Assembly (NCBI RefSeq): GCF_009557235.1
Contig: NZ_CP045650.1
Coordinates: 900,001 to 932,000 of the forward strand
Length of the DNA stretch: 32,000 nucleotides
Source of the DNA: Acinetobacter wanghuae
GTDB lineage: Bacteria; Pseudomonadota; Gammaproteobacteria; Pseudomonadales; Moraxellaceae
Direction: 5' to 3'
Position numbers and translations under genes: made by a program. The stretch's first letter is position 1. The number at the start of each line of letters is the position of its first letter. Shown here piece after piece: positions 5,623-27,876 of the stretch. The notes beneath the pieces were generated by a model. That model had not been told where the DNA came from and searched no databases. It saw nothing but the letters and a program-made list of their open reading frames with translations.

Positions 5623-6210
5623 TCAACGTTTAAAACGCAAAGATGTTTCGGGTGTAATCAAGGCATCTAATGGCTGATCCCATGGTTGACGAATAAATGT
5701 TTGCTGCACAAGTTGAAAATGATGTGCGATCCCGAGTCGATAAGGACGATAAGGCGCGCTTGCTAGGGTACGATCATAATAACCACCACCCATTCCAATA
5801 CGTGAGCCTAAAGTATCACATGCCAATAACGGTAGAATTAACAGGTCTAAATGAGAAACGTGTAAACCCCGTGTTGCCATGGCTTGCTGCATACCTAAAC
5901 GATGATAGGCAAAACGTCGATTTCGGTATTGTTGTTTTGAAATTTCCACCCAAACAAGACGTTGATTCATATTACAAATTAAAGGTAAAAAAACTTTTTT
6001 ATGTTGTTTAAAACAATGTTCGATGATCGCTTGAGTTTGAATTTCTCCGAAGGCGTCAAGATAGATTCCAATCGCATGACTCTGCTTAAAAATAGCATTT
6101 TCTCTTAATTGATGAAGTACTTTTGTAGCCGATTGCTTTTGCTGAAATGTAGACAATTTACGACGTTGCTTACGTATTTTTTTTCTTAGCGTTTGGAAAG
6201 TTTCAGACAT
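5623..6210 (-). CDS. ygfA: 5-formyltetrahydrofolate cyclo-ligase
   Basis: ORF with the family motif GMGGGYYDR near the C-terminus and the right size (~195 aa). The ATG at 6210 (MSETFQ...) is more likely than the TTG at 6225. No clear Shine-Dalgarno sequence precedes either. Confidence 0.8.
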   Translation of the reverse strand: MSETFQTLRKKIRKQRRKLSTFQQKQSATKVLHQLRENAIFKQSHAIGIYLDAFGEIQTQAIIEHCFKQHKKVFLPLICNMNQRLVWVEISKQQYRNRRFAYHRLGMQQAMATRGLHVSHLDLLILPLLACDTLGSRIGMGGGYYDRTLASAPYRPYRLGIAHHFQLVQQTFIRQPWDQPLDALITPETSLRFKR

Positions 6211-6793
6211 AGTTAGGTGTAACAAGGAGTTTATTTTAGTGTAACGCTTCTTTGATTAAATTCAATTCTGACAAATTAAAATTAGACTCAAATAATTATA
6301 TATAAAACTTAAAATTAATTAGAAAATCTTAATTATAGTTTGCGAAAGTATTCGGTTGTTACCTGCAGATTCTATCCTGAATATCAGTTATCACCAGTTA
6401 GAAATTAGAGGTTAAGTACTTATACGCATATCGCATACATATATTACAAATAGATAATACTAAAAATAGGATATTGATTAATATAACTACATAAATCAAC
6501 TATATCATCATTTTTTTATGATTATTAAAATATTGAAAAATAAATATTTATGGTTAAAACATCATCATTTTTAATCAATTTGGTTAAATTCTAATTAATT
6601 GTATTAATTGTGTGAAAAACCCACCAATTAGCTAGATATACAATTAAAAGAAAAAGAGATAATTATACGTGGTTCATATTTAATAGTGTGATAAGTATCA
6701 CGTTATTTATTTTAAGGCATGAGTATAAAGTTAATCGGATTTTATACATTTAATATTTTCTAAACTTTTAAGTTTATTGGGCGGATTTTTGAT

Positions 6794-8086
6794 ATGCAGA
6801 AGCAAGTCATTTCTAAAAGTACATGGGTAAGTAAATTAGTGGATGACAACATCATTCAATTAACTGAAAACTCAGTTGTCATGATTGATGTAACAGAAGA
6901 TCAAATTGAAAAAATTGAAATGGTTGGTAACCAACTTAAAATTACTTTAAAAAATGGTGAAGTGATTATTGTTGATAGTTTTGATCCATCATTCAATGAT
7001 ATTGTCATTCGTACAAGTGATTCAGAATTATTTTTATATGATTTTCCAACAGCAAAATATAATGCGCTAGAAAAATTAGAATTATTAATGGAAAGTGTTC
7101 CAAGCTCAGCAAGTTTTGTGGACGTTTGGCCGTTGGCTGGAATGGGTTTAGGAGCGATTGCACTTGGATTAGCAGCAAAAGAAGGTTCTGATTCAAAAGA
7201 AGAAAACGAGAATGCTTTAAATGAAGCAAAAGATGCGCTAGAACAAGCAATTACTGATGCTGAATCAACACTTGACAGCTTAACTGGTGCAGAAAAAGAA
7301 GCAGCAGAACAAGCGATTGAAGATGCACAAAATGCATTGGCAGACGAAACAGCAACAGCTGAAGATCTAGCACAAGCTCAAAAAGACCTTGACGCAGCAA
7401 TCAAAGAAGCTGAAACAGCACAAGCTGATAAAGATGCTGCGCAAGTTGAAGCAGAACAAGCTCTTGATGAAGCAAAAGATGCGCTAGAACAAGCGATTGT
7501 CGATGCTGAATCAACACTTGATAGCTTAACTGGTGCAGAAAAAGATGCAGCAGAACAAGCGATTGCTGATGCAAAAGATGCCTTAACAGCAGAAGATGCA
7601 ACCGTAGATAGCCTAGAGCAAGCAGCGCAAGATCTTGAATCAGCAATCAAAGAAGCTGAAACAGCACAAAAGGACAAAGACACTGCGCAAGTGGAAGCAG
7701 AACAAGCCCTTGATGAAGCAAAAGATGCACTTGAAAAAGCCATCAAAGATGCTGAATCAACACTTGATAGCTTAACTGGTGCAGAAAAAGAAGCAGCAGA
7801 ACAAGCGATTGCTGATGCAAAAGAGGCCTTAACAGCAGAAGATGCAACGGTAGATGGCCTAGAGGAAGCTCAGACTGATCTTGAATCAGCAATCAAAGAA
7901 GCTGAAACAGCACAAGCTGATAAAGAAGCAGCACAAGTTGAAGCAGAACAAGCTCTTGATCAAGCAAAAGATGCACTTGAAAAAGCCATCAAAGATGCTG
8001 AATCAACACTTGATAGCTTAACTGGTGCAGAAAAAGAAGCAGCAGAACAAGCGATTGCTGATTGCAAAAGATGCCTTAACGCATGA
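6794..8086 (+). CDS. Adhesin N-terminal fragment as assembled (prefix domain, hydrophobic segment, first 3.5 family-A repeats)
   Basis: 430-aa ORF from the track. It ends at a TGA created by local indels in repeat copy 4, seen by comparing 8061-8120 with the equivalent stretch at 7815-7875. Confidence 0.7.
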   Translation: MQKQVISKSTWVSKLVDDNIIQLTENSVVMIDVTEDQIEKIEMVGNQLKITLKNGEVIIVDSFDPSFNDIVIRTSDSELFLYDFPTAKYNALEKLELLMESVPSSASFVDVWPLAGMGLGAIALGLAAKEGSDSKEENENALNEAKDALEQAITDAESTLDSLTGAEKEAAEQAIEDAQNALADETATAEDLAQAQKDLDAAIKEAETAQADKDAAQVEAEQALDEAKDALEQAIVDAESTLDSLTGAEKDAAEQAIADAKDALTAEDATVDSLEQAAQDLESAIKEAETAQKDKDTAQVEAEQALDEAKDALEKAIKDAESTLDSLTGAEKEAAEQAIADAKEALTAEDATVDGLEEAQTDLESAIKEAETAQADKEAAQVEAEQALDQAKDALEKAIKDAESTLDSLTGAEKEAAEQAIADCKRCLNA

Positions 8087-8660
8087 ATCAACGGTAGATG
8101 GCCTAGAGGAAGCTCAACTGATCTTGAATCAGCAATCAAAGAAGCTGAAACAGCACAAGCTGATAAAGAAGCAGCACAAGTTGAAGCAGAACAAGCTCTT
8201 GATCAAGCAAAAGACGCGCTAGAACAAGCAATTACTGATGCTGAATCACAACTTGACAGCTTAACTGGTGCAGAAAAAGATGCAGCAGAGCAAGCGATTG
8301 CAGATGCAACAGATGCCTTAACAGCAGAAGATGCAACCGTAGATAGCCTAGAGCCAGCACAAACTGAGCTTGAATCAGCGATCAAAGATGCTGAAACAGC
8401 ACAAGCTGATAAAGACACTGCGCAAGTGGAAGCAGAACAAGCATTAGATGAAGCAAAAGATGCGCTAGAACAAGCGATTGTCGATGCTGAATCAACACTT
8501 GACAGCTTAACTGGTGCAGAAAAAGGTGCAGCAGAGCAAGCGATTGAAGATGCACAAAATGCATTGGCAGACGAAACAGCAACAGCTGAAGATCTAGCAC
8601 AAGCTCAAAAAGACCTTGACGTAGCAATCAAAGAAGCTGAAACAGCACAAGCTGATAAAG
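7205..8660 (+). repeat. Coding tandem repeat family A: ~6 units of 246 bp (82 aa)
   Basis: The anchor GAAGCAAAAGATGC (caagc variant in some copies) recurs at 7223, 7469, 7715, 7961, 8204 and 8450, a spacing of 246 bp with one 243-bp unit. Unit: EAKDALEQAI.DAESTLDSLTGAEKEAAEQAI.DA..AL...ATV..L..AQ.DL..AIKEAETAQADKDAAQVEAEQALD. Confidence 0.9.
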
Positions 8661-11600
8661 AAGAAGCAAAAGGCGCGCTTGAACAAGCGATTGCGAAAGC
8701 AGATGCAGCATTAACTTCAGAATTACCAAGATTAGATGGTGCAGAACGTGAAGCTGTAATTGCAGAGAAAGCAAAAGCTGAAGCGGCATTAGATAATGCG
8801 TCTTTAACTGCGGATGAATTGCAGGTTGCGGCAGATACATTAGTTAAAGTTGTAGAAGATGCTGTTAAAGCTGAGCAAGTTGAAGATGCAGCAGAAGAAG
8901 CACAAGCCTTAGCTGAAGCAAAAGCAGCATTAACTGATGCGATTGCGAAAGCAGATGCAGCATTAACTTCAGAATTACCAAGATTAGATGGTGCAGAACG
9001 TGAAGCTGTAATTGCGAGAAAGCAAAAGCTGAAGCGCATTAGATATGCGTCTTTACTGCGGATGAATTGCAGGTTGCGGCAGATACATTAGTTAAAGTTG
9101 TAGAAGATGCTGTTAAGCTGAGCAAGTTGAAGATGCAGCAGAAGCGGCTGCAGCAGCAGATAAATTAGCAGCAGAAGACACAAGCCTTAGCTGAAGCAAA
9201 AGCAGCATTAACTGACGATTGCGAAAGCAGATGCAGCATTAACTTCAGAATTACCAAGATTAGATGGTACAACGTGAGCCGTATTAGTTTGAGAAAGGCA
9301 AAAGCTGAAGCGGCATTAGATAATGCGTCTTTAACTGCGGATGAATTGCAGGTTGCGGCAGATACATTAGTTAAAGTTGTAGAAGATGCTGTTAAAGCTG
9401 AGCAAGTTGAAGATGCAGCAGCAGATATTAGCAGCAGAAGAAGCACAGCCTTAGCTGAAGCAAAAGCAGCATTAACTGATGCGATTGCGAAAGCAGATGC
9501 AGCATTAACTTCAGAATTACCAAGATTAGATGGTGCAGAACGTGAAGCTGTAATTGCAGAGAAAGCAAAAGCTGAAGCGGCATTGGATAATGCGTCTTTA
9601 ACTGCGGATGAATTGCAAGTTGCGGCAGATACATTAGTTAAAGTTGTAGAAGATGCTGTTAAAGCTGAGCAAGTTGAAGATGCAGCAGAAGCGGCTGCAG
9701 CAGCAGATAAATTAGCAGCAGAAGAAGCACAAGCCTTAGCTGAAGCAAAAGTAGCATTAACTGATGCGATTGCGAAAGCAGATGCAGCATTAACTTCAGA
9801 ATTACCAAGATTAGATGGTACAGAACGTGAAGCCGTATTAGTTGAGAAAGCAAAAGCTGAAGCGGCATTGGATAATGCGTCTTTAACTGCGGATGAATTG
9901 CAAGTTGCGGCAGATACATTAGTTAAGTTGTAGAAGATGCTGTTAAACGCTGAGCAAGTTGAAGATGCAGCAGAAGCGGCTGCAGCAGCAGATAAATTAG
10001 CAGCAGAAGAAGCACAAGCCTTAGCTGAAGCAAAAGCAGCATTAACTGATGCGATTGCGAAAGCAGATGCAGCATTAACTTCAGAATTACCAAGATTAGA
10101 TGGTGCAGAACGTGAAGCTGTAATTGCAGAGAAAGCAAAAGCTGAAGCGGCATTAGATAATGCGTCTTTAACTGCGGATGAATTGCAGGTTGCGGCAGAT
10201 ACATTAGTTAAAGTTGTAGAAGATGCTGTTAAAGCTGAGCAAGTTGAAGATGCAGCAGAAGCGGCTGCAGCAGCAGATAATTAGCAGCAGAAGAAGCACA
10301 AGCCTTAGCTGAAGCAAAAGCAGCATTAACTGATCGATTGCGAAAGCAGATGCAGCATTAACTTCAGAATTACCAAGATTAGATGGTGCAGAACGTGAAG
10401 CTGTAATTGCAGAGAAAGCAAAAGCTGAAGCGGCAGTTAGATAATGCGTCTTTAACTGCGGATGAATTGCAGGTTGCGGCAGATACATTAGTTAAAGTTG
10501 TAGAAGATGCTGTAAAGCTGAGCAAGTTGAAGATGCAGCAGAAGCGGCTGCAGCAGCAGATAAATTAGCAGCAGAAGAAGCACAAGCCTTAGCTGAAGCA
10601 AAAGCAGCATTAACTGATGCGATTGCGAAAGCAGATGCAGCATTAACTTCAGAATTACCAAGATTAGATGGTGCAGAACGTGAAGCCGTATTAGTTGAGA
10701 AAGCAAAAGCTGAAGCGGCATTAGATAATGCGTCTTTAACTGCGGATGAATTGCAAGTTGCGGCAGATACATTAGTTAAGTTGTAGAAGATGCTGTTAAA
10801 GCTGAGCAAGTTGAAGATGCAGCAGAAGCGGCTGCAGCAGCAGATAATTAGCAGCAGAAGAAGCACAAGCCTTAGCTGAAGCAAAAGCAGCATTAACTGA
10901 TGCGATTGCGAAAGCAGATGCAGCATTAACTTCAGAATTACCAGATTAGATGGTGCAGAACGTGAAGCTGTAATTGCAGAGAAAGCAAAGCTGAAGCGGC
11001 ATTAGATAATGCGTCTTTAACTGCGGATGAATTGCAGGTTGCGGCAGATACATTAGTTAAAGTTGTAGAAGATGCTGTTAAGCTGAGCAAGTTGAAGATG
11101 CAGCAGAAGCGGCTGCAGCAGCAGATAAATTAGCAGCAGAAGAAGCCACTTAGCTGAAGCAAAAGCAGCATAACTGATGCGATTGCGAAAGCAGATGCAG
11201 CATTAACTTCAGAATTACCAAGATTAGATGGTGCAGAACGTGAAGCTGTAATTGCAGAGAAGCAAAAGCTGAAGCGCATTAGATAATGCGTCTTTAACTG
11301 CGGATGAATTGCAGGTTGCGGCAGATACATTAGTTAAAGTTGTAGAAGATGCTGTTAAGCTGAGCAAGTTGAAGATGCAGCAGAAGCGGCTGCAGCAGCA
11401 GATAAATTAGCAGCAGAGAAGACACAGCCTTAGCTGAAGCAAAAGCAGCATTAACTGATGCGATTGCGAAAGCAGATGCAGCATTAACTTCAGAATTACC
11501 AAGATTAGATGGTGCAGAACGTGAAGCCGTATTAGTTGAGAAAGCAAAAGCTGAAGCGGCATTAGATAATGCGTCTTTAACTGCGGATGAATTGCAGGTT

Positions 11601-14169
11601 GCGGCAGATACATTAGTTAAAGTTGTAGAAGATGCTGTTAAAGCTGAGCAAGTTGAAGATGCAGCAGCAGATAAATTAGCAGCAGAAGAAGCACAAGCCT
11701 TAGCTGAAGCAAAAGCAGCATTAACTGATGCGATTGCGAAAGCAGATGCAGCATTAACTTCAGAATTACCAAGATTAGATGGTGCAGAACGTGAAGCTGT
11801 AATTGCAGAGAAAGCAAAAGCTGAAGCGGCATTAGATAATGCGTCTTTAACTGCGGATGAATTGCAGGTTGCGGCAGATACATTAGTTAAAGTTGTAGAA
11901 GATGCTGTTAAAGCTGAGCAAGTTGAAGATGCAGCAGAAGCGGCTGCAGCAGCAGATAAATTAGCAGCAGAAGAAGCACAAGCCTTAGCTGAAGCAAAAG
12001 CAGCATTAACTGATGCGATTGCGAAAGCAGATGCAGCATTAACTTCAGAATTACCAAGATTAGATGGTACAGAACGTGAAGCCGTATTAGTTGAGAAAGC
12101 AAAAGCTGAAGCGGCATTAGATAATGCGTCTTTAACTGCGGATGAATTGCAGGTTGCGGCAGATACATTAGTTAAAGTTGTAGAAGATGCTGTTAAAGCT
12201 GAGCAAGTTGAAGATGCAGCAGCAGATAAATTAGCAGCAGAAGAAGCACAAGCCTTAGCTGAAGCAAAGCATTAACTGATGCGATTGCGAAAGCAGATGC
12301 AGCATTAACTTCAGAATTACCAAGATTAGATGGTGCAGAACGTGAAGCTGTAATTGCAGAGAAAGCAAAAGCTGAAGCGGCATTGGATAATGCGTCTTTA
12401 ACTGCGGATGAATTGCAAGTTGCGGCAGATACATTAGTTAAGTTGTAGAAGATGCTGTTAAAGCTGAGCAAGTTGAAGATGCAGCAGAAGCGGCTGCAGC
12501 AGCAGATAAATTAGCAGCAGAAGAAGCACAAGCCTTAGCTGAAGCAAAAGTAGCATTAACTGATGCGATTGCGAAAGCAGATGCAGCATTAACTTCAGAA
12601 TTACCAAGATTAGATGGTGCAGAACGTGAAGCTGTAATTGCAGAGAAAGCAAAGCTGAAGCGGATTAGATAATGCGTCTTTAACTGCGGATGAATTGCAG
12701 GTTGCGGCAGATACATTAGTTAAAGTTGTAGAAGATGCTGTTAAAGCTGAGCAAGTTGAAGATGCAGCAGAAGCGGCTGCAGCACAGATAAATTAGCAGC
12801 AAGAAGCACAAGCCTTAGCTGAAGCAAAAGCATTAACTGATGCGATGCGAAAGCAGATGCAGCATTAACTTCAGAATTACCAAGATTAGATGGTGCAGAA
12901 CGTGAAGCCGTATTAGTTGAGAAAGCAAAAGCTGAAGCGGCATTAGATAATGCGTCTTTAACTGCGGATGAATTGCAGGTTGCGGCAGATACATTAGTTA
13001 AAGTTGTAGAAGATGCTGTTAAAGCTGAGCAAGTTGAAGATGCAGCAGCAGATAAATTAGCAGCAGAAGAAGCACAAGCCTTAGCTGAAGCAAAAGCAGC
13101 ATTAACTGATGCGATTGCGAAAGCAGATGCAGCATTAACTTCAGAATTACCAAGATTAGATGGTGCAGAACGTGAAGCTGTAATTGCAGAGAAAGCAAAA
13201 GCTGAAGCGGCATTAGATAATGCGTCTTTAACTGCGGATGAATTGCAGGTTGCGGCAGATACATTAGTTAAAGTTGTAGAAGATGCTGTTAAAGCTGAGC
13301 AAGTTGAAGATGCAGCAGAAGCGGCTGCAGCAGCAGATAAATTAGCAGCAGAAGAAGCACAAGCCTTAGCTGAAGCAAAAGCAGCATTAACTGATGCGAT
13401 TGCGAAAGCAGATGCAGCATTAACTTCAGAATTACCAAGATTAGATGGTACAGAACGTGAAGCCGTATTAGTTGAGAAAGCAAAAGCTGAAGCGGCATTA
13501 GATAATGCATCTTTAACTGCGGATGAATTGCAGGTTGCGGCAGATACATTAGTTAAAGTTGTAGAAGATGCTGTTAAAGCTGAGCAAGTTGAAGATGCAG
13601 CAGAAGCGGCTGCAGCAGCAGATAAATTAGCAGCAGAAGAAGCACAAGCCTTAGCTGAAGCAAAAGCAGCATTAACTGATGCGATTGCGAAAGCAGATGC
13701 AGCATTAACTTCAGAATTACCAAGATTAGATGGTGCAGAACGTGAAGCTGTAATTGCAGAGAAAGCAAAAGCTGAAGCGGCATTAGACAATGCGTCTTTA
13801 ACTGCGGATGAATTGCAAGTTGCGGCAGATACATTAGTTAAAGTTGTAGAAGATGCAGTGAATGCTGAATCTGTGGAAGATGCAGCAGAAGCGGCTGCAG
13901 CAGCAGATAAATTAGCAGCAGAAGAAGCACAAGCCTTAGCTGAAGCAAAAGCAGCATTAACTGATGCGATTGCGAAAGCAGATGCAGCATTAACTTCAGA
14001 ATTACCAAGATTAGATGGTGCAGAACGTGAAGCTGTAATTGCAGAGAAAGCAAAAGCTGAAGCGGCATTAGACAATGCGTCTTTAACTGCGGATGAATTG
14101 CAAGTTGCGGCAGATACATTAGTTAAAGTTGTAGAAGATGCAGTGAATGCTGAATCTGTGGAAGATGCA
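8661..14169 (+). repeat. Coding tandem repeat family B: ~19-20 units of 285 bp (95 aa), with 270-bp and one 252-bp length variants
   Basis: The anchor GCAGATACAT recurs at 8831, 9079, 9358, 9625, 9910, 10195, 10479, 10763, 11044, 11321, 11604, 11874, 12159, 12425, 12707, 12985, 13255, 13540, 13825 and 14110 (hand count). Unit: AKADAALTSELPRLDG(A/T)EREAV(IA/LV)EKAKAEAALDNASLTADELQVAADTLVKVVEDAVKAEQVEDAA(EAAAA)DKLAAEEAQALAEAKAALTDAI. Confidence 0.9.
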
Positions 14170-14799
14170 GCAGAGGCACAAGCACAAGCTGAAGCAGCAG
14201 CAAAAGCGGAATCAGAAGCACTAGAAGCAGCGAAAGCAGCATTGGGTAAAGCAATTCAAGCTGCAGAAGATGCGTTAAGTACAACAGCTAAGCCACAATT
14301 GGATGGCGATGAACTTAAAGCTGTGTTGATTGAAAAAGCCAAAGCTGAAGTGGCATTTGAAAATGAAGCTTTAACTGCAGCGCAATTAAAAACTGCAGCA
14401 GATACATTAAATAAAGTTGTAGAAGATGCAGTGAATGCTGAATCTGTGGAAGATGCAGCAGAGGCACAAGCACAAGCTGAAGCAGCAGCAAAAGCGGAAT
14501 CAGAAGCACTAGAAGCAGCGAAAGCAGCATTGGGTAAAGCAATTCAAGCTGCAGAAGATGCGTTAAGTACAACAGCTAAGCCACAATTGGATGGTGATGA
14601 ACTTAAAGCTGTGTTGATTGAAAAAGCCAAAGCTGAAGTGGCATTTGAAAATGAAGCTTTAACTGCAGCGCAATTAAAAACTGCAGCAGATACATTAAAT
14701 AAAGTTGTAGAAGATGCAGTGAATGCTGAATCTGTGGAAGATGCAGCAGAGGCACAGCACAAGCTGAAGCAGCAGCAAAAGCGGAATCAGAAGCACTAG
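12973..14799 (+). CDS. Adhesin internal fragment as assembled (clean family B units plus the first family C units)
   Basis: 608-aa ORF from the track. It ends because of a single missing base near 14757, where ggcacagcacaagctg replaces ggcacaagcacaagctg of the other copies. Confidence 0.6.
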   Translation: MQVAADTLVKVVEDAVKAEQVEDAAADKLAAEEAQALAEAKAALTDAIAKADAALTSELPRLDGAEREAVIAEKAKAEAALDNASLTADELQVAADTLVKVVEDAVKAEQVEDAAEAAAAADKLAAEEAQALAEAKAALTDAIAKADAALTSELPRLDGTEREAVLVEKAKAEAALDNASLTADELQVAADTLVKVVEDAVKAEQVEDAAEAAAAADKLAAEEAQALAEAKAALTDAIAKADAALTSELPRLDGAEREAVIAEKAKAEAALDNASLTADELQVAADTLVKVVEDAVNAESVEDAAEAAAAADKLAAEEAQALAEAKAALTDAIAKADAALTSELPRLDGAEREAVIAEKAKAEAALDNASLTADELQVAADTLVKVVEDAVNAESVEDAAEAQAQAEAAAKAESEALEAAKAALGKAIQAAEDALSTTAKPQLDGDELKAVLIEKAKAEVAFENEALTAAQLKTAADTLNKVVEDAVNAESVEDAAEAQAQAEAAAKAESEALEAAKAALGKAIQAAEDALSTTAKPQLDGDELKAVLIEKAKAEVAFENEALTAAQLKTAADTLNKVVEDAVNAESVEDAAEAQHKLKQQQKRNQKH

Positions 14800-15600
14800 A
14801 AGCAGCGAAAGCAGCATTGGGTAAAGCAATTCAAGCTGCAGAAGATGCGTTAAGTACAACAGCTAAGCCACAATTGGATGGTGATGAACTTAAAGCTGTG
14901 TTGATTGAAAAAGCCAAAGCTGAAGTGGCATTTGAAAATGAAGCTTTAACTGCAGCGCAATTAAAAACTGCAGCAGATACATTAAATAAAGTTGTAGAAG
15001 ATGCAGTGAATGCTGAATCTGTGGAAGATGCAGCAGAGGCACAAGCACAAGCTGAAGCAGCAGCAAAAGCGGAATCAGAAGCACTAGAAGCAGCGAAAGC
15101 AGCATTGGGTAAAGCAATTCAAGCTGCAGAAGATGCGTTAAGTACAACAGCTAAGCCACAATTGGATGGTGATGAACTTAAAGCTGTGTTGATTGAAAAA
15201 GCCAAAGCTGAAGTGGCATTTGAAAATGAAGCTTTAACTGCAGCGCAATTAAAAACTGCAGCAGATACATTAAATAAAGTTGTAGAAGATGCAGTGAATG
15301 CTGAATCTGTGGAAGATGCAGCAGAGGCACAAGCACAAGCTGAAGCAGCAGCAAAAGCGGAATCAGAAGCACTAGAAGCAGCGAAAGCAGCATTGGGTAA
15401 AGCAATTCAAGCTGCAGAAGATGCGTTAAGTACAACAGCTAAGCCACAATTGGATGGCGATGAACTTAAAGCTGTGTTGATTGAAAAAGCCAAAGCTGAA
15501 GTGGCATTTGAAAATGAAGCTTTAACTGCAGCGCAATTAAAAACTGCAGCAGATACATTAAATAAAGTTGTAGAAGATGCAGTGAATGCTGAATCTGCGG
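14170..15600 (+). repeat. Coding tandem repeat family C: 5 units of 288 bp (96 aa)
   Basis: The anchor GCAGATACATTAAATAAAG recurs at 14398, 14686, 14973, 15261 and 15549. Unit: AQAQAEAAAKAESEALEAAKAALGKAIQAAEDALSTTAKPQLDGDELKAVLIEKAKAEVAFENEALTAAQLKTAADTLNKVVEDAVNAESVEDAAE. The copies are almost identical at the DNA level. Confidence 0.9.
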
Positions 15601-18600
15601 AAGATTTAGCATTAGCAAAAGCTCAATTACAACAACTATTGGCAAAAGCAGTTTTAGCTTTAGATGATTCAACATTAGAAATGGATCGAGATAAGCTAAT
15701 AGTTGAAACAGCTTTAGCGCAACAACTACTGGAAGCTAATTCGTCAACAGTTGAAGAAATTCAAAGTGCCTCTAAAAACTTAGAAACATTACTATCGAAT
15801 ATTTCTAATCCTTATCTTGGTGATGTAACCATTGCGGATGATGGATTGTCAATATCTGGTCAATTGACACCGGGTAGTAAAGTAGTCATTGAATATGAGG
15901 GCAATTCACAAGTTGTAACGAGTAATCTTGATGATGGTCGTTTCAATATCATATTGACCGCACCACTTGTAGATGGTCAAGAAGTAATAGTTACAGAGTT
16001 AAACGGTAAAGAAGTTCTAGGAACAACAGATCTTATCTATGAAGATGGTGCGGTTGTTGTTGGAGAGACGATTATCGCCGATGATGGTAAATCAGTATTA
16101 GTACAAGGTGAACCGGGTGCTTCTGTAGAAATTAAACATGAGGGTAAACTTATCGGTCATGGTGTAATGAGCAAAGATGGCACAGTTAATATTGTATTAG
16201 ATAAAGCATTGCTAAACGGTAATCAAATCACTTTATCTTATGAAGATATTAAAGGTAATACAGCAACTAATACTGCAGTCTATACAGATAATATAGATCC
16301 AGACTTGAATGAAGTTGAGTTTGTACTAGTTGATGAAACTAATTTATCTATTTACGATGATACGCTTGCAAATCAAGTCGTAGAGTTTGAGTTACTTAAC
16401 TTACCATTGGATTCTCAACAAGTTAAAGTCTTTGTTGGTGGAGTTCAGGCGACCAACTACGGTGATATTTATGGTAAATGGACAGTTACATTACCAAGTG
16501 ACTTGATCATGAAGCAAGATGGTAGCTTGCCAGTTGTTATTTCAGTCACTGAAACATCAGGAAATAGCACACAAGATTATCAGTTAGATAACTTAAGTTA
16601 TGAAATACTATCTTCATATCCAACAGATATTCTTGAACATGAAATATTTGCACGAGTAGACATCACACCACAGTCTAGTCCACTCTTTATTTCAGGTGAT
16701 AATCCATACAAAAACTTAGAGGCTAAAGTTGTTGGACTCACCTTGGGTGGTGTTCTATCTGCTGATGTAATTCAAACGCTTAATGGTATTGATTTCAATA
16801 TCGAAGAGGGTAAAACGTGGAGTTTCGACTTCGATTATACCTTGCATAGCTTATTAGGTGTCAGCGCAATCAACGTTGTGCTTTATAAAGAGCAAGTGAA
16901 TGCAGATGGAACAATCTCTTGGGTATCTGAAACTGTCGGTGGCGGTGTTGTCGGTGGCGGTCTATGGATTGGGTCTACAGAAACTCTTCACATTTCTAAT
17001 TTGACTTCGGGTACCTATAAGTTAGTCGCAGGTACAGGTAAAGCAGGAATTAGTGTTCTTGGTGCGATTTCTACAGAAATGAAAAATATTGAAGTAGAAA
17101 CTTGGACAGATCCTGCGTCAAATATATATGAGGCTTTAGCGTATACAGGTAATGCTTTCCTTGATTTATTAGAAAAGACGAATGATCTAAACTTCAATCC
17201 TACAAATAATAACGGGCTTACCATTACCAAGGTCTACTTCGGTAAAGAAAATCCTAATTTAACTGTAGTGGCAGAAGAAGGTTATACTGAAGTAGTAGGT
17301 CAGTACGGATCATTATTCGTTGCTGCAAATGGTGATTATTATTACCAAGCGAAAGCAGAAGCGAAGGGTTTAGGTCTATATGATGAACCATTTACATTAG
17401 TGTATGGTAATGATCGTGACCATGATGGCAAAGCTGACCAAAATGGGACTAAAGTAATTACAGGTGGTATTCAATTAACGGTGGGGATTGATAGCCCAGA
17501 TATGGACTATGAGTGGAACAAAAATGAAATTCCTGTTGGAACCACTTATGCGCTAGATGATGTAAATCAAGTAGATGTTGCATTAGGTAATAATTATTCT
17601 ACTGATGTACACGATAGCGCTAATTTACTTGAATCTAAAAAACAAATTGGATCGTATACTCAAGATAAGCAGTATTCGACAGTAGCTTACTCAAGTGATG
17701 CGCATGGTTTTAAATTTACTGTCAAAGATCATACACTTGAAAAATTAAGTAATCCCACTTTTGAAATTACATCTCTAGACAGTAAGCCATATAGCTACGT
17801 TATTTATAAATTAAATCAACTTAATACAAGTGAGACTGTGTTTGAAATTGTTGATCAAGGAGTGATTGAGGACAAACAAAGCTTTGGTAAAAATTTAATT
17901 TTAAGTGGTGGGGATTATGAAGTCATTATGTACAATGGTTCTTCAACACCTGACTTCAAGGTAAATTTTGATAAAGAATTAATTTCACAAGTAATTCACT
18001 CAGAGGTTGACCTAAAATCTTACAAATCATTTAACTTTAATTTTGATTTAAATCCAAACGAGTATGGTGTAATTGAAATTCAGCAAGTTGATATTGATAC
18101 AATTCTTACTAATTCTTCAACGAATTGGACACTTTACAAGAATGTCAACGGTATTGAAACTAAACTTAGTTCTGGAGTTGTTAAGGACTTAGATGGTTTA
18201 AATATTTTTGAATGGGATAACAAAGGCAAAAGTGAATATCTAAGTAGTGGTATTTATCGATTAGAATTTGATAAAGATATCCAAACACTATCAGTTGTTA
18301 GTAAAGCCGTTAATCAATATGAGTTTAGTATTCTTAAAGAAGAAGGGACCTATACTCAAGCCAAAGGTGTATTGCTCGCTAATGATAAATACGATGTAAG
18401 AACCGTTAAGCTTCAAATTGAAGTGAACGGTGAAATGCAGCGTGTGAACACGGTTCCGCTGTCAACTACTGATGGTGTAACAACTGTTCAAGGTGAGTTT
18501 GGTCAACTTCAACTTTGGTCAAATGGTTACTATATCTATACACCTGATGTAAACAAAATTGGCATTAATGCAATTGGTCAGTCAGATAAATTTGACTATG

Positions 18601-19133
18601 CATTTACAGATCTCACAGGACAAATGAAAGAGGCAACACTGACTATTAATATTGGTGGTATAGGTGCTGTGATCAAACCTGCTGGTGAAACTGACATCCT
18701 TTTAGAAGGTACAGCCAATAGCGAAATGTTGGTAGCTAACGAATTCAATAATGTAATTCATGGTAATGGTGGTTCAGATACCTTAGTTTACAAATTATTG
18801 AATGAAGCAAGTGTAACTGGTGGTAATGGTCAAGATATTTGGACTGATTTTGCAGTAGGTAATGTCATAGAAGATGATGCTGATGCGATTAATGTGCAAG
18901 AATTACTCATTGATCAAACAGTTGCTAATATTAATGACTTTATTGAAGTACGTTATGATTATCAAAAGGATGCAGTAACTGTATCTATTGACCGAGATGG
19001 TGCAGGGACTGGATATGAACAAACTGATCTAGTTACTCTAACGGACTTTAAGAAACAGAATGCGGATGTAGTATTCACATCGAATGATGATCTTCTCAAT
19101 CTGTTAATTGCAAATGGTCAAATTATTTATTAA
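14817..19133 (+). CDS. Adhesin C-terminal fragment as assembled (last family C repeats, Ig-like modules, large non-repeat beta-rich region, T1SS signal)
   Basis: 1438-aa uninterrupted ORF ending at TAA 19131-19133, followed by a strong terminator. The true frame is open upstream of the nominal start, so this is not an independent gene. Confidence 0.75.
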   Translation: MGKAIQAAEDALSTTAKPQLDGDELKAVLIEKAKAEVAFENEALTAAQLKTAADTLNKVVEDAVNAESVEDAAEAQAQAEAAAKAESEALEAAKAALGKAIQAAEDALSTTAKPQLDGDELKAVLIEKAKAEVAFENEALTAAQLKTAADTLNKVVEDAVNAESVEDAAEAQAQAEAAAKAESEALEAAKAALGKAIQAAEDALSTTAKPQLDGDELKAVLIEKAKAEVAFENEALTAAQLKTAADTLNKVVEDAVNAESAEDLALAKAQLQQLLAKAVLALDDSTLEMDRDKLIVETALAQQLLEANSSTVEEIQSASKNLETLLSNISNPYLGDVTIADDGLSISGQLTPGSKVVIEYEGNSQVVTSNLDDGRFNIILTAPLVDGQEVIVTELNGKEVLGTTDLIYEDGAVVVGETIIADDGKSVLVQGEPGASVEIKHEGKLIGHGVMSKDGTVNIVLDKALLNGNQITLSYEDIKGNTATNTAVYTDNIDPDLNEVEFVLVDETNLSIYDDTLANQVVEFELLNLPLDSQQVKVFVGGVQATNYGDIYGKWTVTLPSDLIMKQDGSLPVVISVTETSGNSTQDYQLDNLSYEILSSYPTDILEHEIFARVDITPQSSPLFISGDNPYKNLEAKVVGLTLGGVLSADVIQTLNGIDFNIEEGKTWSFDFDYTLHSLLGVSAINVVLYKEQVNADGTISWVSETVGGGVVGGGLWIGSTETLHISNLTSGTYKLVAGTGKAGISVLGAISTEMKNIEVETWTDPASNIYEALAYTGNAFLDLLEKTNDLNFNPTNNNGLTITKVYFGKENPNLTVVAEEGYTEVVGQYGSLFVAANGDYYYQAKAEAKGLGLYDEPFTLVYGNDRDHDGKADQNGTKVITGGIQLTVGIDSPDMDYEWNKNEIPVGTTYALDDVNQVDVALGNNYSTDVHDSANLLESKKQIGSYTQDKQYSTVAYSSDAHGFKFTVKDHTLEKLSNPTFEITSLDSKPYSYVIYKLNQLNTSETVFEIVDQGVIEDKQSFGKNLILSGGDYEVIMYNGSSTPDFKVNFDKELISQVIHSEVDLKSYKSFNFNFDLNPNEYGVIEIQQVDIDTILTNSSTNWTLYKNVNGIETKLSSGVVKDLDGLNIFEWDNKGKSEYLSSGIYRLEFDKDIQTLSVVSKAVNQYEFSILKEEGTYTQAKGVLLANDKYDVRTVKLQIEVNGEMQRVNTVPLSTTDGVTTVQGEFGQLQLWSNGYYIYTPDVNKIGINAIGQSDKFDYAFTDLTGQMKEATLTINIGGIGAVIKPAGETDILLEGTANSEMLVANEFNNVIHGNGGSDTLVYKLLNEASVTGGNGQDIWTDFAVGNVIEDDADAINVQELLIDQTVANINDFIEVRYDYQKDAVTVSIDRDGAGTGYEQTDLVTLTDFKKQNADVVFTSNDDLLNLLIANGQIIY
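15820..16290 (+). other. Two tandem Ig-like (bacterial Ig / BapA-type) modules inside the adhesin
   Basis: Two paralogous ~75-80 aa segments. The first is DVTIADDGLSISGQLTPGSKVVIEYEGNSQVVTSNLDDGRFNIILTAPLVDGQEVIVTEL. The second is ETIIADDGKSVLVQGEPGASVEIKHEGKLIGHGVMSKDGTVNIVLDKALLNGNQITLSY. The pattern is typical of Ig-like adhesin modules. The domain family was not verified. Confidence 0.5.
18700..19130 (+). other. T1SS C-terminal secretion target domain (degenerate RTX-like GG repeats plus C-terminal signal)
   Basis: The sequence ...LEGTANSEMLV...VIHGNGGSDTLVYKL...VTGGNGQDIWTDFAVGN...DAINVQELLID...VTVSIDRDGAGTGYEQTDLVTLTDF... resembles the VC_A0849-type T1SS C-terminal target domain as I remember it. 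Confidence 0.65.
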
Positions 19134-19150
19134 TTTAAGCTAAATAAAAA

Positions 19151-19177
19151 AATGGTGCTTAATGCACCATTTTTTTC
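19151..19177 (+). terminator. Rho-independent terminator of the adhesin gene
   Basis: Stem AATGGTGC/GCACCATT, loop TTAAT, then a T7 run. It is preceded by an A-run, so it could work in both directions. Confidence 0.9.
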
Positions 19178-23063: not shown

Positions 23064-24311
23064 ATGATAAACAATAAGATGATGATACAGTTAACGGCTT
23101 TGGTTATGGGGCTATCCGCTTGCAGTATTGGGTCGATTCATGCCGCTTCAGCAACCCCAATACAACCTGCAAATACGCAACAAGTCTTTTTTGTCGGAAA
23201 TAACTGGGATGGTACAGTCACGGTGATTCGATCTGGCGGTGATTTTTCTAAAGTAGGTGTCATTAATATGATTCCTGATCGAAAAGAACGCTTAAAAGAA
23301 ATTCATCTAAATCCAATTCAGCTGATTGCCTACACCTATATTCAAGCGACTGCTGGACAGGGTAATGATCAGTTGGTCGATGATATGTATTCAACTCCAG
23401 ATGGTCAGTCGGTTGTGGCATCTCGTCCAAGTTTTGCCGATGTTGTATCGATTAATATTAAGACAGGAAAAATAAACTGGCGTAGCAAGGTTGAAGGTTT
23501 CCGTGCTGATCATATGGCAGTCTCACCAGATGGTCAGCGTGTGGCTGTATCGGCATCCTCAGGTAATGTCGTTCATGTGTTAGATATCAATACAGGGAAG
23601 GAATTGGGACGTTTTCCAACAGGCGACAAACCACATGAAAATATTTACTTTGCGGGCGGGAATAAAATCTTAAATTCGTCGATTGGTAATGTTGAAACAC
23701 CATTAGATGCATCTTGGCAAGATTTCACCAAGGGTAAGCGCATGATCACGATTGCAGATGCCAATAATTATAGCGTGTTAAAGAAAATTGATTTTCGTCC
23801 TGCACTAGACAAGTTTGGTCGTAAAGATTTATCTAATTCAGTACGCCCAATGGTCTTTAGCAATGATGAAACCAAACTGTATGCACAAGTTTCATTTTTC
23901 AATGGCTTGGTCGAATACGACTTAATCAATGATAAAGTGACACGTATTGGTCAATTACCGGGCAGCACTAAAATTCCGAAAGATCGCACCAAATGGGTTA
24001 ATGACTCACGTCATCATGGTTTATCTATCAGCGCTGATGGAGAAAAACTCTGTGTTGCAGGCACAATGGATGACTATGCCACCATTGTCGATCGTAAAAC
24101 CCTGCAAGCTGGAAAATTGATTCCCGCAGGAAAACCCTATTGGGCAACCCGTAGTCCAGATGGCAAAAGCTGCTTAATTTCAGAAAGTGATACGGATGTT
24201 GTGACCGTGATTGATTTTGCTACAGGCAATAAAGTGTTGAGCGTGCCTGTTGGAAATCATCCACAACGCGTACGTTTGGGTTATGCACCAGCAGATTGGT
24301 CTACAAAATAA
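23064..24311 (+). CDS. Secreted or lipid-anchored YncE-like beta-propeller protein
   Basis: 415 aa. GAGGA lies 7 nt upstream of the ATG. The signal peptide has a possible lipobox (VMGLSAC). Repeated motifs of the type VSPDG(Q/K).V.VS....V.V.D are typical of YncE/lactonase-type 7-bladed propellers. Confidence 0.65.
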   Translation: MINNKMMIQLTALVMGLSACSIGSIHAASATPIQPANTQQVFFVGNNWDGTVTVIRSGGDFSKVGVINMIPDRKERLKEIHLNPIQLIAYTYIQATAGQGNDQLVDDMYSTPDGQSVVASRPSFADVVSINIKTGKINWRSKVEGFRADHMAVSPDGQRVAVSASSGNVVHVLDINTGKELGRFPTGDKPHENIYFAGGNKILNSSIGNVETPLDASWQDFTKGKRMITIADANNYSVLKKIDFRPALDKFGRKDLSNSVRPMVFSNDETKLYAQVSFFNGLVEYDLINDKVTRIGQLPGSTKIPKDRTKWVNDSRHHGLSISADGEKLCVAGTMDDYATIVDRKTLQAGKLIPAGKPYWATRSPDGKSCLISESDTDVVTVIDFATGNKVLSVPVGNHPQRVRLGYAPADWSTK

Positions 24312-24371
24312 TAATTGAAAGAAGATACTGATTGAGCAATTCATCAGTATCTTTTAAACAAAAGAAAAATT

Positions 24372-24830
24372 ATGTCTAAGTTTTCTAAAATAAGTTTTTT
24401 GTTTATAGCGATGATTCTGAGTTTGGCAGCCTTGGTATTTTTGCTGAAACCAAATAATGCTGAACTGCATCAAAGCAATTCAACTCATCCAATCGTATTG
24501 AAGCAAAACGTATCTCAACTTAATCCACAAACCACGACAGTGGAAATATCTTCGGATACTCAAAAAGATGAAGCATTCTTAGAGCAGCGAACAAGATTGT
24601 ATGAATTTTTAGGTGAACTTTCGTTTGATATGATTGAAGGGCAAAAGCCAGATTTAAGACAAGTCACAGACATGATGAGATCGCAAAATGAATTGGTCAG
24701 ACAAGGGCTTGTCGAGCCGCAAGAAGCATTGAATTACTTAGAATTTTTGAAACAGATTTTTCCAGAAATGGAAACTGAATTGGTCGCATTTATTGAAGAA
24801 ATAAATGCTGAAAATGATTTGAAAAAATAA
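24372..24830 (+). CDS. Hypothetical protein with an N-terminal membrane anchor and an acidic helical C-terminal part
   Basis: 152-aa ORF. The hydrophobic segment is ISFLFIAMILSLAALVFLL. I recognise no family. Its stop codon directly abuts the ssrS-derived repeat. Confidence 0.5.
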   Translation: MSKFSKISFLFIAMILSLAALVFLLKPNNAELHQSNSTHPIVLKQNVSQLNPQTTTVEISSDTQKDEAFLEQRTRLYEFLGELSFDMIEGQKPDLRQVTDMMRSQNELVRQGLVEPQEALNYLEFLKQIFPEMETELVAFIEEINAENDLKK

Positions 24831-27202: not shown

Positions 27203-27203
27203 A

Positions 27204-27560: not shown

Positions 27561-27600
27561 TGAAAATTCGCTCCACAACTATTGGGAATTTTATTGTTGC

Positions 27601-27794: not shown

Positions 27795-27876
27795 TGCTAT
27801 TGAATTCTCATTTGTTTTGACTACAATGAGCCAAAATCTACATATTTACTCCATAATTATGGATGGGAAATTTATA

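Follow-up and report, generated by a model that had tools for sequence, protein, structure and literature searches.

The Acinetobacter wanghuae locus described here probably contains a gene for a giant cell-surface adhesin of ∼4,100–4,130 residues from the BapA/Bap/LapF (RTX-type, type I-secreted) family, and the stalk of this adhesin is likely to consist of ∼31 Ebh-like three-helix modules in place of the usual beta-sandwich domains. The gene lies at positions 6794–19133 of a 32-kb window, the whole stretch of DNA that was analysed, where the following features were recognized:

6226–6793, + strand: AT-rich upstream intergenic region, presumed promoter region of the adhesin gene (composition profile)
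6794–7204, + strand: N-terminal module (aa 1–137), a BapA prefix-like domain followed by the hydrophobic Gly/Ala-rich segment VWPLAGMGLGAIALGLAA (Pfam, NCBIfam)
7205–8650, + strand: A array of six 82-aa units (246 nt each), three-helix modules of the FIVAR type (TRF, Pfam FIVAR, AF2)
8651–14289, + strand: B array, 20 units of 95 aa, in-frame variants of 90 and 84 aa included (anchor spacing, unit alignment)
14290–15596, + strand: C array of five 96-aa units (288 nt each) with KPQLDGDELKAV (anchors)
15597–15815, + strand: degenerate last helical segment (AEDLALAKAQLQQLL...NLETLLSNISNPY) that bridges the helical array to the first Ig-like domain (translation)
15816–16600, + strand: Ig-like beta domains, two Big_6 and a Ca2+-tandemer-like match (Pfam, NCBIfam)
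16794–18014, + strand: region like the C-terminal region of BapA/Bap/LapF large adhesins, with VCBS-like motif 1 (NCBIfam)
18456–18659, + strand: VCBS / Big_9 domain with motif 2 (GEFGQLQLWSNGYYIYTPD, 18492–18548) (NCBIfam, Pfam)
18708–19133, + strand: C-terminal export region, presumed T1SS secretion signal and stop codon (homology)
19146–19176, no strand assigned: palindromic 13-bp hairpin between A and T runs (terminator scan)

Adhesin ends and repeat arrays

The BapA prefix-like character that the sequence-only reading had given to the N-terminus was confirmed by two curated models, Pfam BapA_N (57.6 bits, cut-off 27, aa 4–101) and NCBIfam biofilm_BapA_N (43.8 bits, cut-off 35). A single-sequence AF2 model of this module was beta-rich, with low confidence (pLDDT 40–70). 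The C-terminal Ig-like modules were likewise found, with Big_6 above the Pfam cut-off in two stretches (50.7 bits, cut-off 27.6); NCBIfam Ca_tandemer scored 43.4 bits on the same region, under its cut-off of 50. Both expected VCBS-like motifs were located, the first at 17298–17348 within the 16794–18014 region. This region, the presumed ligand-binding part of the protein, scored 141.5 bits with the NCBIfam model adhes_GNV_Cterm, under the cut-off of 180, and is only about 23% identical to the matching part of the homologue P0005. The domain that carries the second motif passed TIGR01965 VCBS (21.6 bits, cut-off 15.5) and stayed under the cut-off of Pfam Big_9 (19.1 bits, cut-off 23.6).

A T1SS C-terminal target domain had also been proposed, and this part of the reading held through homology only. 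The TIGR03661 target model gave no match on the adhesin's own C-terminus, and the single RTX nonapeptide match, GNGGSDTLVY, was weak (HemolysinCabind, 18.3 bits, under the cut-off of 23). On the other side, the last 219 aa are 36% identical to P0005 (E 1e-27) in an alignment that runs through the last residue, and the aligned part of P0005 passes TIGR03661 (T1SS_VCA0849) with 47.2 bits (cut-off 17.6); P0005 also passes adhes_GNV_Cterm, with 361 bits. The export region matches the C-end of the ABSDF2314 adhesin as well (E 1.7e-17). The T1SS target is thus presumed from homology to a passing relative, and the ends can be placed in the Bap/T1SS adhesin family, at the N-terminus directly and at the C-terminus through homologues that pass both models.

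Between these ends, TRF and anchor spacing recovered the three tandem repeat families at the positions where they had been described. TRF reported the A array at 7221–8663 (period 246, 5.9 copies), the B array at 8650–14290 (about 20 copies of 285 nt, with 270- and 252-nt variants) and the C array with a period of 288 nt up to 15605. The copy number given for C, 6.4 rather than 5, arises because the last B units have a C-type distal half; the C anchors lie at 14290, 14578, 14865, 15153 and 15441, with spacings of 288, 287, 288 and 288. Each B unit carries LPRLDG(A/T)EREAV, the occurrence of 20 near-identical 285-nt B units is far above chance, and a C unit is 60% identical to a B unit. Composition counts bore out the description of the repeats as dominated by A, E, K, D and L and poor in Gly and Pro: Ala amounts to 27–34% and Asp plus Glu to 20–29%, and a unit has about one Gly and no more than one Pro. 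The adhesin is strongly acidic. Pfam gave no match on the degenerate segment at 15597–15815 ahead of the start of Big_6.

Upstream of the gene, GC content falls to 26.6% (positions 6001–7000); promoter-like hexamer pairs occurred there only at or below the shuffle expectation, and no promoter was assigned. Downstream, a hairpin begins 13 nt past the stop codon (1 found versus 0.1 expected in the terminator scan), a terminator-like site that may serve both directions. No T1SS, LapG or LapD genes are present within the 32-kb window.

A reading frame interrupted inside the repeats

One continuous adhesin ORF over 6794–19133 had been assumed, and this was not what the assembly contained. The + strand is split into at least 11 stop-free pieces spread over all three frames, which NCBI annotates as separate hypothetical proteins; the locus tags of the region are GFH30_04140 and GFH30_04170, the latter 100% identical to the ORF at 14817–19133. 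The frame is broken by about 46 small indels, most of which remove 1 nt from a homopolymer: 39 in the B array (8975–12876), six in one A unit (8062–8117), where an in-frame stop at 8084–8086 is also found, and one in the C array, a 1-nt deletion at about 14756. As assembled, the sequence cannot encode the full adhesin, and a single giant protein is obtained only after repair. The fragmentation, the internal stop and the piecemeal annotation are what a genuine pseudogene would display, in which real frameshifts and stops inactivated a once-functional adhesin gene and at most fragments are made, and large adhesins are commonly lost in Acinetobacter (De Gregorio 2015).

The pattern of the indels makes such a history improbable. 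All 46 are confined to the repeats, with each flanking gene intact, and they are deletion-biased and homopolymer-linked: 34 of the 39 in the B array are deletions, and 23 of its 28 single-base deletions adjoin an identical base. They cluster in a few units, whereas identical neighbouring units are perfect. Moreover, indel-bearing units differ from the nearest clean unit by 0–3 substitutions per 285 nt, so that the indels came with essentially no private substitutions, the reverse of neutral decay; one inactivating mutation suffices, and forty more without substitutions would be hard to explain. When the 39 B-array indels were undone, an open frame of 1,772 codons with zero stops returned, and the indels were therefore read as assembly errors. 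In a second A. wanghuae assembly the same C-terminal part is open as far as the contig end. Judged from these patterns, the ∼46 indels most likely arose as errors in the consensus of a long-read assembly, within repeats that are nearly identical, and the gene itself has probably not decayed; the number of repeats could be misassembled too. According to a 2026 preprint, long-read assemblies run into this problem with repetitive RTX adhesins.

Predicted helical fold of the repeat units

The likeness of family A to FIVAR-type repeats proved correct. The A units passed Pfam FIVAR (41.4 bits, cut-off 29.2), a domain that is itself already well described, and the top two matches of the A-unit profile among PDB sequences were Embp 6gv8 (E 0.0026) and Ebh 4kjm. 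AF2 models supported helical rather than beta units for all families. The model of B-B-C was all-helix with a pLDDT of 95.1 on an alignment of 6 rows only, and showed 18–19-residue helices alternating with 63–64-residue helices that cross the unit borders. The A array was also all-helix (pLDDT about 90–96), and its units, each with a 19-residue and a 54-residue helix, showed the same short/long pattern.

The assignment of the B and C units is less direct. Pfam searches with these units alone gave no family above threshold (best FIVAR E-value among units, 0.22), the helical units of an Acinetobacter MAG reached a best FIVAR E-value of 0.007, and the B/C-unit profile found neither Ebh nor Embp among PDB sequences. 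The AEAAAAADKLAAEEAQ stretch of each long helix is poor in large hydrophobic residues, and with Ala/Glu-rich, low-complexity helical sequence, helix predictions and their AF2 confidence can come out too high, as can profile–profile scores such as those of hhalign. On these grounds the region might instead form a coiled coil between chains or an acidic brush that is largely unstructured, and the FIVAR resemblance of B/C would then be compositional. We consider this quite unlikely. The comparison of B/C with A units by hhalign (95.5%, E 1.4e-8, 68 columns) is in register, pairing LPRLDGAEREAV with LDSLTGAEKEAA motif to motif, and supports a probable relationship between the two. In every unit of the AF2 model of B-B-C, P.LDG falls exactly on a turn that contains Pro/Gly, and another turn follows the short helix. 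The positions L17, I21, L28, P33, L35, D36, G37 and L71 are invariant across three Acinetobacter lineages at ∼40% identity, and this conservation of hydrophobic and turn positions suits a fold, not a brush. Finally, the top PDB match of the B/C model in Foldseek was EbhA 2dgj (probability 1.00), with Ebh 4kjm and Embp 6gv5 also among the matches. These matches were weak (E-values 0.04, TM-scores 0.39–0.45); such values are expected of a flexible helical rod, yet they are not decisive.

An array of three-helix modules invites comparison with Ebh of S. aureus and Embp of S. epidermidis, giant Gram-positive matrix-binding proteins of FIVAR and FIVAR-GA repeats (PDB 2dgj, 4kjm, 6gv5, 6gv8). Pfam FIVAR units are common to these proteins and the A array, the predicted B/C structure has similar three-helix modules strung on continuous long helices, and dozens of tandem copies would form a presumed rod in both. 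The A. wanghuae adhesin differs in its Gram-negative host, its export route and its BapA_N and T1SS-type ends. Ebh and Embp have a Sec/YSIRK-type signal and a C-terminal wall or membrane anchor. In contrast to the staphylococcal proteins, the adhesin has no GA modules (no match to Pfam GA or GA_3), its B/C units fall under the FIVAR threshold, its 82–96-aa units have a longer connecting helix (54–64 residues), and its B/C model shares only 17% sequence identity with Ebh in the fold alignment.

Proposed export, function and relatives of the adhesin

We propose that the C-terminal signal region would lead export of the unfolded chain, C-terminus first. The route would be an ABC transporter of the LssB/LapB type with its membrane-fusion protein and TolC channel, whose genes would lie at another place in the genome. 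The usual view of T1SS substrates such as HlyA and the RTX adhesins is that they pass in the unfolded state and that Ca2+ sets off their folding once they are outside. Three-helix bundles often fold fast unaided, and an unfolded T1SS passage of the array is not readily explained. The BapA prefix-like module and hydrophobic segment would remain at the cell envelope and tether the adhesin. Once outside the cell, the ∼2,800 middle residues would adopt their fold of about 31 FIVAR-like modules, of which 6 belong to family A, 20 to B and 5 to C, with one degenerate unit in addition. From module to module, the final helix of one would continue unbroken as the first of the next, giving a helical string like that of Ebh/Embp. 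The product would be an acidic rod, estimated at roughly 0.2 micrometre, that may keep the Ig-like, VCBS and GNV-type C-terminal binding region at a distance from the cell.

The array could also be, instead of or besides a passive spacer, a putative multivalent surface on which all 31 modules would make contact with host matrix, mucus or polysaccharide over its full length, as reported for the FIVAR modules of Embp with fibronectin and proposed for glycosidase-attached FIVAR domains. The A units are bona fide FIVAR, the titles of the best-matching PDB entries, 6gv5 and 6gv8, refer to Embp-mediated adherence to fibronectin, and the names of related species suggest gut or faecal habitats (A. faecalis). 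In addition, surface residues are nearly the same in all 20 B units, and binding would then be of high avidity; such near-identity, however, also results from a recent expansion of repeats and from gene conversion, with no selection for binding involved. This idea is tentative and compatible with the spacer role preferred here.

With the BapA/Bap/LapF-family adhesins (A. baumannii Bap and BLP1, Salmonella BapA and SiiE, Pseudomonas LapA/LapF, Marinomonas MpIBP) the A. wanghuae adhesin shares the BapA prefix-like domain, the layout of N-terminal anchor, tandem-repeat extender and diverged C-terminal binding region, the VCBS and Ig-like domains, a strongly acidic character and a C-terminal export region with homologues above the T1SS target threshold. 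Unlike them, it has ∼31 helical FIVAR-like modules as extender where they have Ca2+-binding beta-sandwich (BIg) domains, keeps only 2–3 Ig-like domains, C-terminal of the helical array, nearly lacks RTX nonapeptides and has no secretion or LapG/LapD genes nearby. Extenders in a 2026 survey of 35 RTX adhesins and in the Acinetobacter BAP/BLP survey are beta-sandwich or Ser/Asp-rich only, and no description of a helical FIVAR-like extender in T1SS adhesins was found in the literature, this 2026 survey included.

Outside A. wanghuae, B/C repeats were found only in two other Acinetobacter lineages, A. faecalis (WP_321088103.1 and WP_321095398.1, named 'BapA/Bap/LapF family large adhesin, partial') and an Acinetobacter sp. 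MAG (MBP8063464.1, named 'type I secretion C-terminal target domain-containing protein, partial'). These partial homologues have P.LDG.ER-type helical units, 37–44% identical to B/C with the same invariant positions, and share the layout of BapA_N, helical units, Ig-like domains, GNV-type C-terminus and export signal. On the MAG scaffold the order is BapA_N (60.7 bits), hydrophobic segment, helical P.LDG.ER units, Big_13/Big_6 and T1SS target. In A. faecalis, a TolC-family gene and an LssB-type T1SS ABC gene (788.6 bits vs 693.1) lie ∼6.5 kb away. Fewer units are assembled in these homologues because contig breaks or an N-gap fall inside the repeats. Unlike the A. wanghuae adhesin, they have clear RTX repeats and C-terminal matches above curated thresholds, and they sit at another chromosomal locus, followed by a 282-aa mini-protein of BapA_N plus T1SS target; A. 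faecalis has additional helical insert domains between some units, and the MAG a Gly/Asp/Ser linker (GTGDGS repeats) past the hydrophobic segment.

An HMMER search with B/C units as query brought up a parallel design (E 1.2e-11) in Rodentibacter abscessus, a Gram-negative of another bacterial family, the Pasteurellaceae. This uncharacterised 'GA-like domain-containing protein' (WP_412763454.1, full-length, 2,427 aa) has, like the A. wanghuae adhesin, a hydrophobic segment, and its N-terminus resembles BapA_N, though weakly (21.6 bits). Its 16 tandem helical repeats of 88 aa (Pfam GA_3, PF22775, 1,051 bits, with an overlapping FIVAR match) belong to a different family and are joined by Pro-rich linkers (NPVAVPPISDP), not continuous helices; its C-terminus has FG-GAP and RTX nonapeptide repeats, the former unlike the A. 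wanghuae C-terminal region, and an OmpA-family gene lies directly upstream. The view that a helical extender is unusual in T1SS adhesins thus stands as far as published surveys go and is qualified by uncharacterised database proteins, the Rodentibacter one and the partial Acinetobacter homologues, and by a FIVAR domain already known. With the Rodentibacter protein as a second case, the A. wanghuae locus is not alone in having a helical-repeat extender on a T1SS-type adhesin.

Reading frame of the adhesin gene

Window 6794-19133 had been described, in the sequence-only reading, as a giant T1SS-type adhesin. Translation showed that the plus strand of this region is not one open reading frame but consists of at least 11 stop-free pieces distributed over all three frames and carries ~46 small indels; the rest of the observation holds. 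The stop-free pieces include the following.

Stop-free pieces obtained by translation
6794-8083, plus strand, stop-free piece
8087-9088, plus strand, stop-free piece
9169-9930, plus strand, stop-free piece
9934-10281, plus strand, stop-free piece
11406-12272, plus strand, stop-free piece
12841-14796, plus strand, stop-free piece
14730-19130, plus strand, stop-free piece

Translated one by one, the pieces clearly derive from a single coding sequence in which repeats of three families, A, B and C, stand in tandem. Indels in the B array were located by aligning each B unit to its nearest clean sibling unit. This unit alignment revealed 39 frameshifting events at 8975-12876, namely 28 one-base, five two-base and one four-base deletions, together with five one-base insertions. 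The same base adjoined 23 of the 28 one-base deletions, and the units that carried indels differed from the nearest clean unit by only 0-3 substitutions. One A unit (8062-8117) contained about six small indels and an in-frame stop, and the C array a 1-nt deletion at 14756. Most of the ~46 indels were 1-nt, homopolymer deletions, and all of them lay within the adhesin repeats. The flanking genes were all intact, with full-length Pfam matches (among them Lon, 5-formyl-THF cyclo-ligase, ThiM, rhodanese, luciferase-like oxygenase, HAD, PepSY_TM and a TonB-dependent receptor).

Because the events are biased towards deletions, linked to homopolymers, unaccompanied by substitutions and confined to near-identical repeats, their signature indicates long-read consensus errors and not gene decay. 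The same long-read assembly problem in repetitive genes has been described in a 2026 preprint on RTX adhesins (10.1101/2025.09.30.679566). If the frame breaks were real, the gene would be a true pseudogene in this strain; we regard this as a minor alternative, since the indels follow the pattern of assembly errors and undoing the 39 B-array events alone restored an open frame of 1,772 codons with zero stops. Phase variation was ruled out as the source of the frameshifts, which are 46 scattered events as opposed to one tract. As a consequence of the indels, the public annotation carries the gene as separate "hypothetical proteins": ORF 9274-9933 is GFH30_04140 of A. wanghuae, and ORF 14817-19133 is 100% identical to A. 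wanghuae GFH30_04170, on a 2.77-Mb contig. The restriction of indels to the adhesin repeats is a quality flag on the assembly at these repeats.

A second A. wanghuae assembly contains the same C-terminal part, which is cut off within the C repeats by the end of the contig, and the same genes downstream of the adhesin. In both strains the gene lies between 5-formyl-THF cyclo-ligase/Lon and thiM. Antisense ORFs also occur in the repeat arrays, the longest at 12741-14075 (minus strand, 444 aa) and others in 7378-10926; they were rejected as genes and are best taken as by-products of stop-poor, GC-skewed repeats. Further downstream, 23064-24830 encodes a 415-aa protein with a sub-threshold beta-propeller match only and a 152-aa protein without a Pfam match, both conserved in the second strain. 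At 25017-30048, DUF3325, PepSY_TM and a 124-aa ORF without a Pfam match (minus strand) are divergent from a TonB-dependent receptor gene (27817-30048), and this cluster looks like an iron/siderophore uptake and reduction module unrelated to the adhesin.

Predicted helical repeats related to FIVAR modules

The three repeat families of 82, 90/95 and 96 aa were found where they had been placed from the sequence.

Repeat arrays of the adhesin
7205-8650, plus strand, A array, 246-nt (82-aa) units, ~6 copies
8651-14289, plus strand, B array, 285-nt (95-aa) units with in-frame 270-nt and 252-nt variants, 20 copies by the LPRLDG anchor
14290-15596, plus strand, C array, 288-nt (96-aa) units, 5 copies by the KPQLDG anchor

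Their composition likewise agreed with the description of an Ala- and acid-rich, Gly/Pro-poor extender: the units contain 27-34% Ala and 20-29% Asp+Glu, while Gly occurs about once per unit and Pro no more than once. B units are 95, 90 or 84 aa long. The length variants, at 8888, 9414, 11660, 12215 and 13041, have lost 5 residues (EAAAA-type) or 11 residues in frame, in every case from the central, Ala/Glu-rich part of the long connecting helix. An 11-residue change preserves helical phase but a 5-residue one shifts it, so neighbouring modules may differ in rotation.

The proposed likeness of family A to DUF1542/FIVAR repeats was borne out, as A units passed Pfam FIVAR (PF07554) in 4 stretches (41.4 bits against a cut-off of 29.2). 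The best PDB sequence matches of the A-unit profile were Embp 6gv8 (E 0.0026) and Ebh 4kjm (E 0.04). B/C units matched no Pfam family; among the units the best FIVAR E-value was 0.22, and units of the B/C type from a homologue in an Acinetobacter MAG reached E 0.007. Neither the repeat proteins nor the B/C profile found a significant match among PDB sequences. A profile-profile comparison was made with a B/C-type profile built from units of three Acinetobacter lineages. It matched the A profile with 95.5% probability (E 1.4e-8, 68 columns), and the alignment was in register, with LPRLDGAEREAV facing LDSLTGAEKEAA.

AlphaFold2 (AF2) modelling of three consecutive units, B-B-C (13624-14487), gave a pLDDT of 95.1 from an alignment of only six rows, with helices at residues 2-29, 37-55, 61-124, 132-149, 156-218, 228-246 and 252-287. 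In this model a unit consists of a short helix of 18-19 residues and a helix of 63-64 residues, the latter spanning the unit border and also supplying the next module with its first helix, so that three helices per unit are predicted. The A array, modelled without an alignment, displayed the same pattern with 19- and 54-residue helices (pLDDT ~90-96). The 2,800-aa repeat region was predicted to be all-helical and not beta, in line with the helical reading of the extender. When the B-B-C model was compared with the PDB by Foldseek, the top match was S. aureus EbhA 2dgj (probability 1.00, E 0.04, 286 columns), and Ebh 4kjm and Embp 6gv5 were also among the matches; the scores were weak, as is usual with long flexible helical rods. 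A model of the N-terminus plus A array gave weak, mixed three-helix-bundle matches only (CAMP factor, Hsp70 lid). On the strength of the three helices predicted by AF2, EbhA as top Foldseek match and the B/C-to-A profile alignment, the modelled repeat modules have a three-helix fold related to the FIVAR structures of Ebh/Embp. Helix lengths suggest that each A unit adds ~5 nm and each B/C unit ~6.5 nm, so that a rod of ~31 units would be roughly 0.2 micrometre long.

Terminal domains and relatives

The N-terminus was recognised as BapA prefix-like by two models, both above cut-off (Pfam BapA_N, 57.6 bits against 27; NCBIfam biofilm_BapA_N, 43.8 against 35), as the sequence had suggested, and a hydrophobic Gly/Ala-rich segment follows. 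Within the C-terminal 1,170 aa, Big_6 (50.7 bits) and VCBS (21.6 against 15.5) scored above cut-off and Big_9 below it. The expected Ig-like modules are thus present at this end, as are the two VCBS-like motifs, located at 17298-17348 and 18492-18548. No Ig-type Pfam match was found inside the 2,800-aa repeat region, Big_6 appearing only after the repeats. The model adhes_GNV_Cterm ("BapA/Bap/LapF family large adhesin") matched with 141.5 bits (E 4.5e-41), the curated cut-off being 180, and the RTX nonapeptide model HemolysinCabind matched once, with 18.3 bits against 23. The far C-end matches that of ABSDF2314-family adhesins, and a terminator scan placed a terminator-like hairpin after the stop codon. 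As to the T1SS target domain, TIGR03661 gave no match in the window protein, not even when its last 110 aa were searched at E <= 10. Its last 219 aa align through the last residue (36% identity, E 1e-27) to the MAG homologue, which passes TIGR03661 in the aligned part (47.2 against 17.6 bits). The target domain at this end is a putative one, assigned by homology to this relative. No T1SS genes (ABC, MFP, TolC-like) were found within the 32-kb window.

A HMMER search with 652 aa of B/C repeats against 1.84 billion representative proteins returned only five proteins, and for this reason the family looks rare. Two of the five are pieces of the window gene, and the others are as follows.

Relatives found with the B/C repeats
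P0003, A. faecalis, "BapA/Bap/LapF family large adhesin, partial"
P0005, Acinetobacter MAG
P0004, Rodentibacter abscessus (WP_412763454.1), "GA-like domain-containing protein"

Both Acinetobacter homologues pass adhes_GNV_Cterm (P0003, 368 bits; P0005, 361 bits), and P0003 also passes HemolysinCabind (54.5 bits). The MAG scaffold (L003) carries the whole adhesin layout in one frame, an N-gap aside: BapA_N (60.7 bits), the hydrophobic segment, a GTGDGS linker, at least 8 P.LDG.ER helical units, Big_13/Big_6, the GNV C-terminus and the T1SS target. The (GTGDGS)n low-complexity linker occupies L003 6300-8114, between hydrophobic segment and helical units. The hydrophobic segment contains a TAAV motif where the window protein has LAAKE; TAAV looks similar to the di-alanine motif at which LapG cleaves LapA-type adhesins. 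Between the window protein and its MAG homologue, repeats and secretion end are conserved, but the C-terminal binding regions share only ~23% identity.

The A. faecalis and MAG adhesin genes lie upstream of cysS and the kdsD-lptCAB genes. Directly after each (A. faecalis locus L002 5800-6648; L003 12516-13364) is a gene for a 282-aa protein with only a BapA prefix-like domain (Blp2-like N-terminus) and a T1SS target, which from these domains looks like a minimal T1SS substrate; no gene of this type follows the adhesin in the window, where thiM is next. About 6.5 kb downstream, L002 carries a TolC-family gene (216.8 bits, just below the cut-off of 225) and an LssB-type T1SS permease/ATPase (788.6 against 693.1 bits).

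Searching with the C-terminal 1,177 aa returned the protein itself only, and metagenome contigs scanned with P[VRK]LDGAER[DE]-type patterns yielded no relative. Exact 8-residue peptides from the C-terminal region and the N-terminal 137 aa had no confirmed match in species-representative genomes, that of A. wanghuae included; either the representative assembly lacks or truncates the gene or the region is masked there.

The BapA_N retention domain, above both cut-offs, is shared with the T1SS adhesins BapA/Bap/LapF; these have tandem beta-sandwich (BIg) extenders, whereas the extender in the window is predicted to be all-helical. Only the repeat fold is shared with Ebh/Embp, which alternate FIVAR and GA modules and carry Gram-positive signals (Sec/YSIRK-type leader, C-terminal wall/membrane anchor). 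In contrast, the window protein has one module type per repeat, ends in BapA_N and a T1SS-type C-terminus, and belongs to an Acinetobacter host; membership of the Ebh/Embp group was rejected. GA-type Pfam families, including GA_3 at E <= 1, matched no part of it, and membership of the GA_3 (PF22775) repeat proteins was rejected too; P0004, by comparison, scores 1,051 bits for GA_3. The full-length Rodentibacter protein solves the problem in parallel but differently, with a weak BapA_N-like N-terminus, 16 GA_3 helical repeats with Pro-rich linkers between them, then FG-GAP and RTX repeats. It is encoded at L001 9075-17284 (2,427 aa); an OmpA-family gene precedes it by 18 nt on the same strand, and none of the genes within 10 kb belongs to a T1SS.

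A survey of Acinetobacter BAP/BLP proteins (PMC4647330) reports Ig-like or Ser/Asp-rich repeats and names FIVAR only for Embp, and a 2026 survey of 35 RTX adhesins has only beta-sandwich extenders in its models. We found no description in the literature of a helical or FIVAR extender in a T1SS/RTX adhesin. The parts, BapA_N, FIVAR, VCBS and the T1SS signal, are known; their combination is present, judging by domain matches, in a few uncharacterised database proteins. The suggestion that such an extender is unusual thus holds for the described adhesins and is qualified by these proteins.

Proposed export and significance of a predicted helical extender

All in all, the interpretation of the gene as a helical-extender T1SS adhesin was supported, and we consider it likely that it encodes a Bap-family T1SS adhesin with a FIVAR-like helical rod. 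A T1SS encoded elsewhere would export the protein C-terminus first, the N-terminal module would tether it to the cell, and the rod of FIVAR-like three-helix modules would keep the C-terminal Ig/VCBS/GNV binding region off the cell. Compatible with this model, the helical array could also bind ligands itself, as the titles of PDB 6gv5 and 6gv8 report for Embp FIVAR modules.

Such genes are missed by routine annotation, being split into "hypothetical proteins" or truncated at short-read contig ends, and helical-extender adhesins may therefore be under-counted. The present one is rare, and its helical extender is predicted with good confidence. As far as sequence can tell, it shows that the extender slot of T1SS adhesins can take a module otherwise known from the Gram-positive giants Ebh/Embp, an exchange of architecture between proteins that leave the cell by very different routes.

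In current descriptions, RTX/Bap adhesins consist of beta-sandwich extenders strung together and stiffened by Ca2+. On the usual view, T1SS substrates such as HlyA and RTX adhesins pass through the channel in an unfolded state and fold when they encounter extracellular Ca2+, and the RTX/Bap export model has the substrate unfolded in the low-Ca2+ cytoplasm and folded outside. A helical-bundle extender on the same chassis raises the question of how the substrate avoids folding before or during transport. Perhaps so acidic an array folds only when cations are present, or the helices pass the channel singly and pack outside. Tentatively, and at slightly less than an even chance, we propose that a T1SS exports, and the cell retains, a rod of ~0.2 micrometre made of ~31 three-helix modules in which no Ca2+-binding beta domains can be recognised. 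Were this the case, building or extending T1SS adhesins would not in general need beta-sandwich/RTX repeats to fold on a Ca2+ trigger; either single helices would thread the channel and pack after exit, or acidity (20-29% Asp+Glu) would tie folding to extracellular cations. For the module, this would imply one of two origins, transfer of an Ebh/Embp-type FIVAR array from Gram-positives or independent expansion of a FIVAR unit. A helical extender of this kind lends itself naturally to testing whether extracellular folding helps to drive export.
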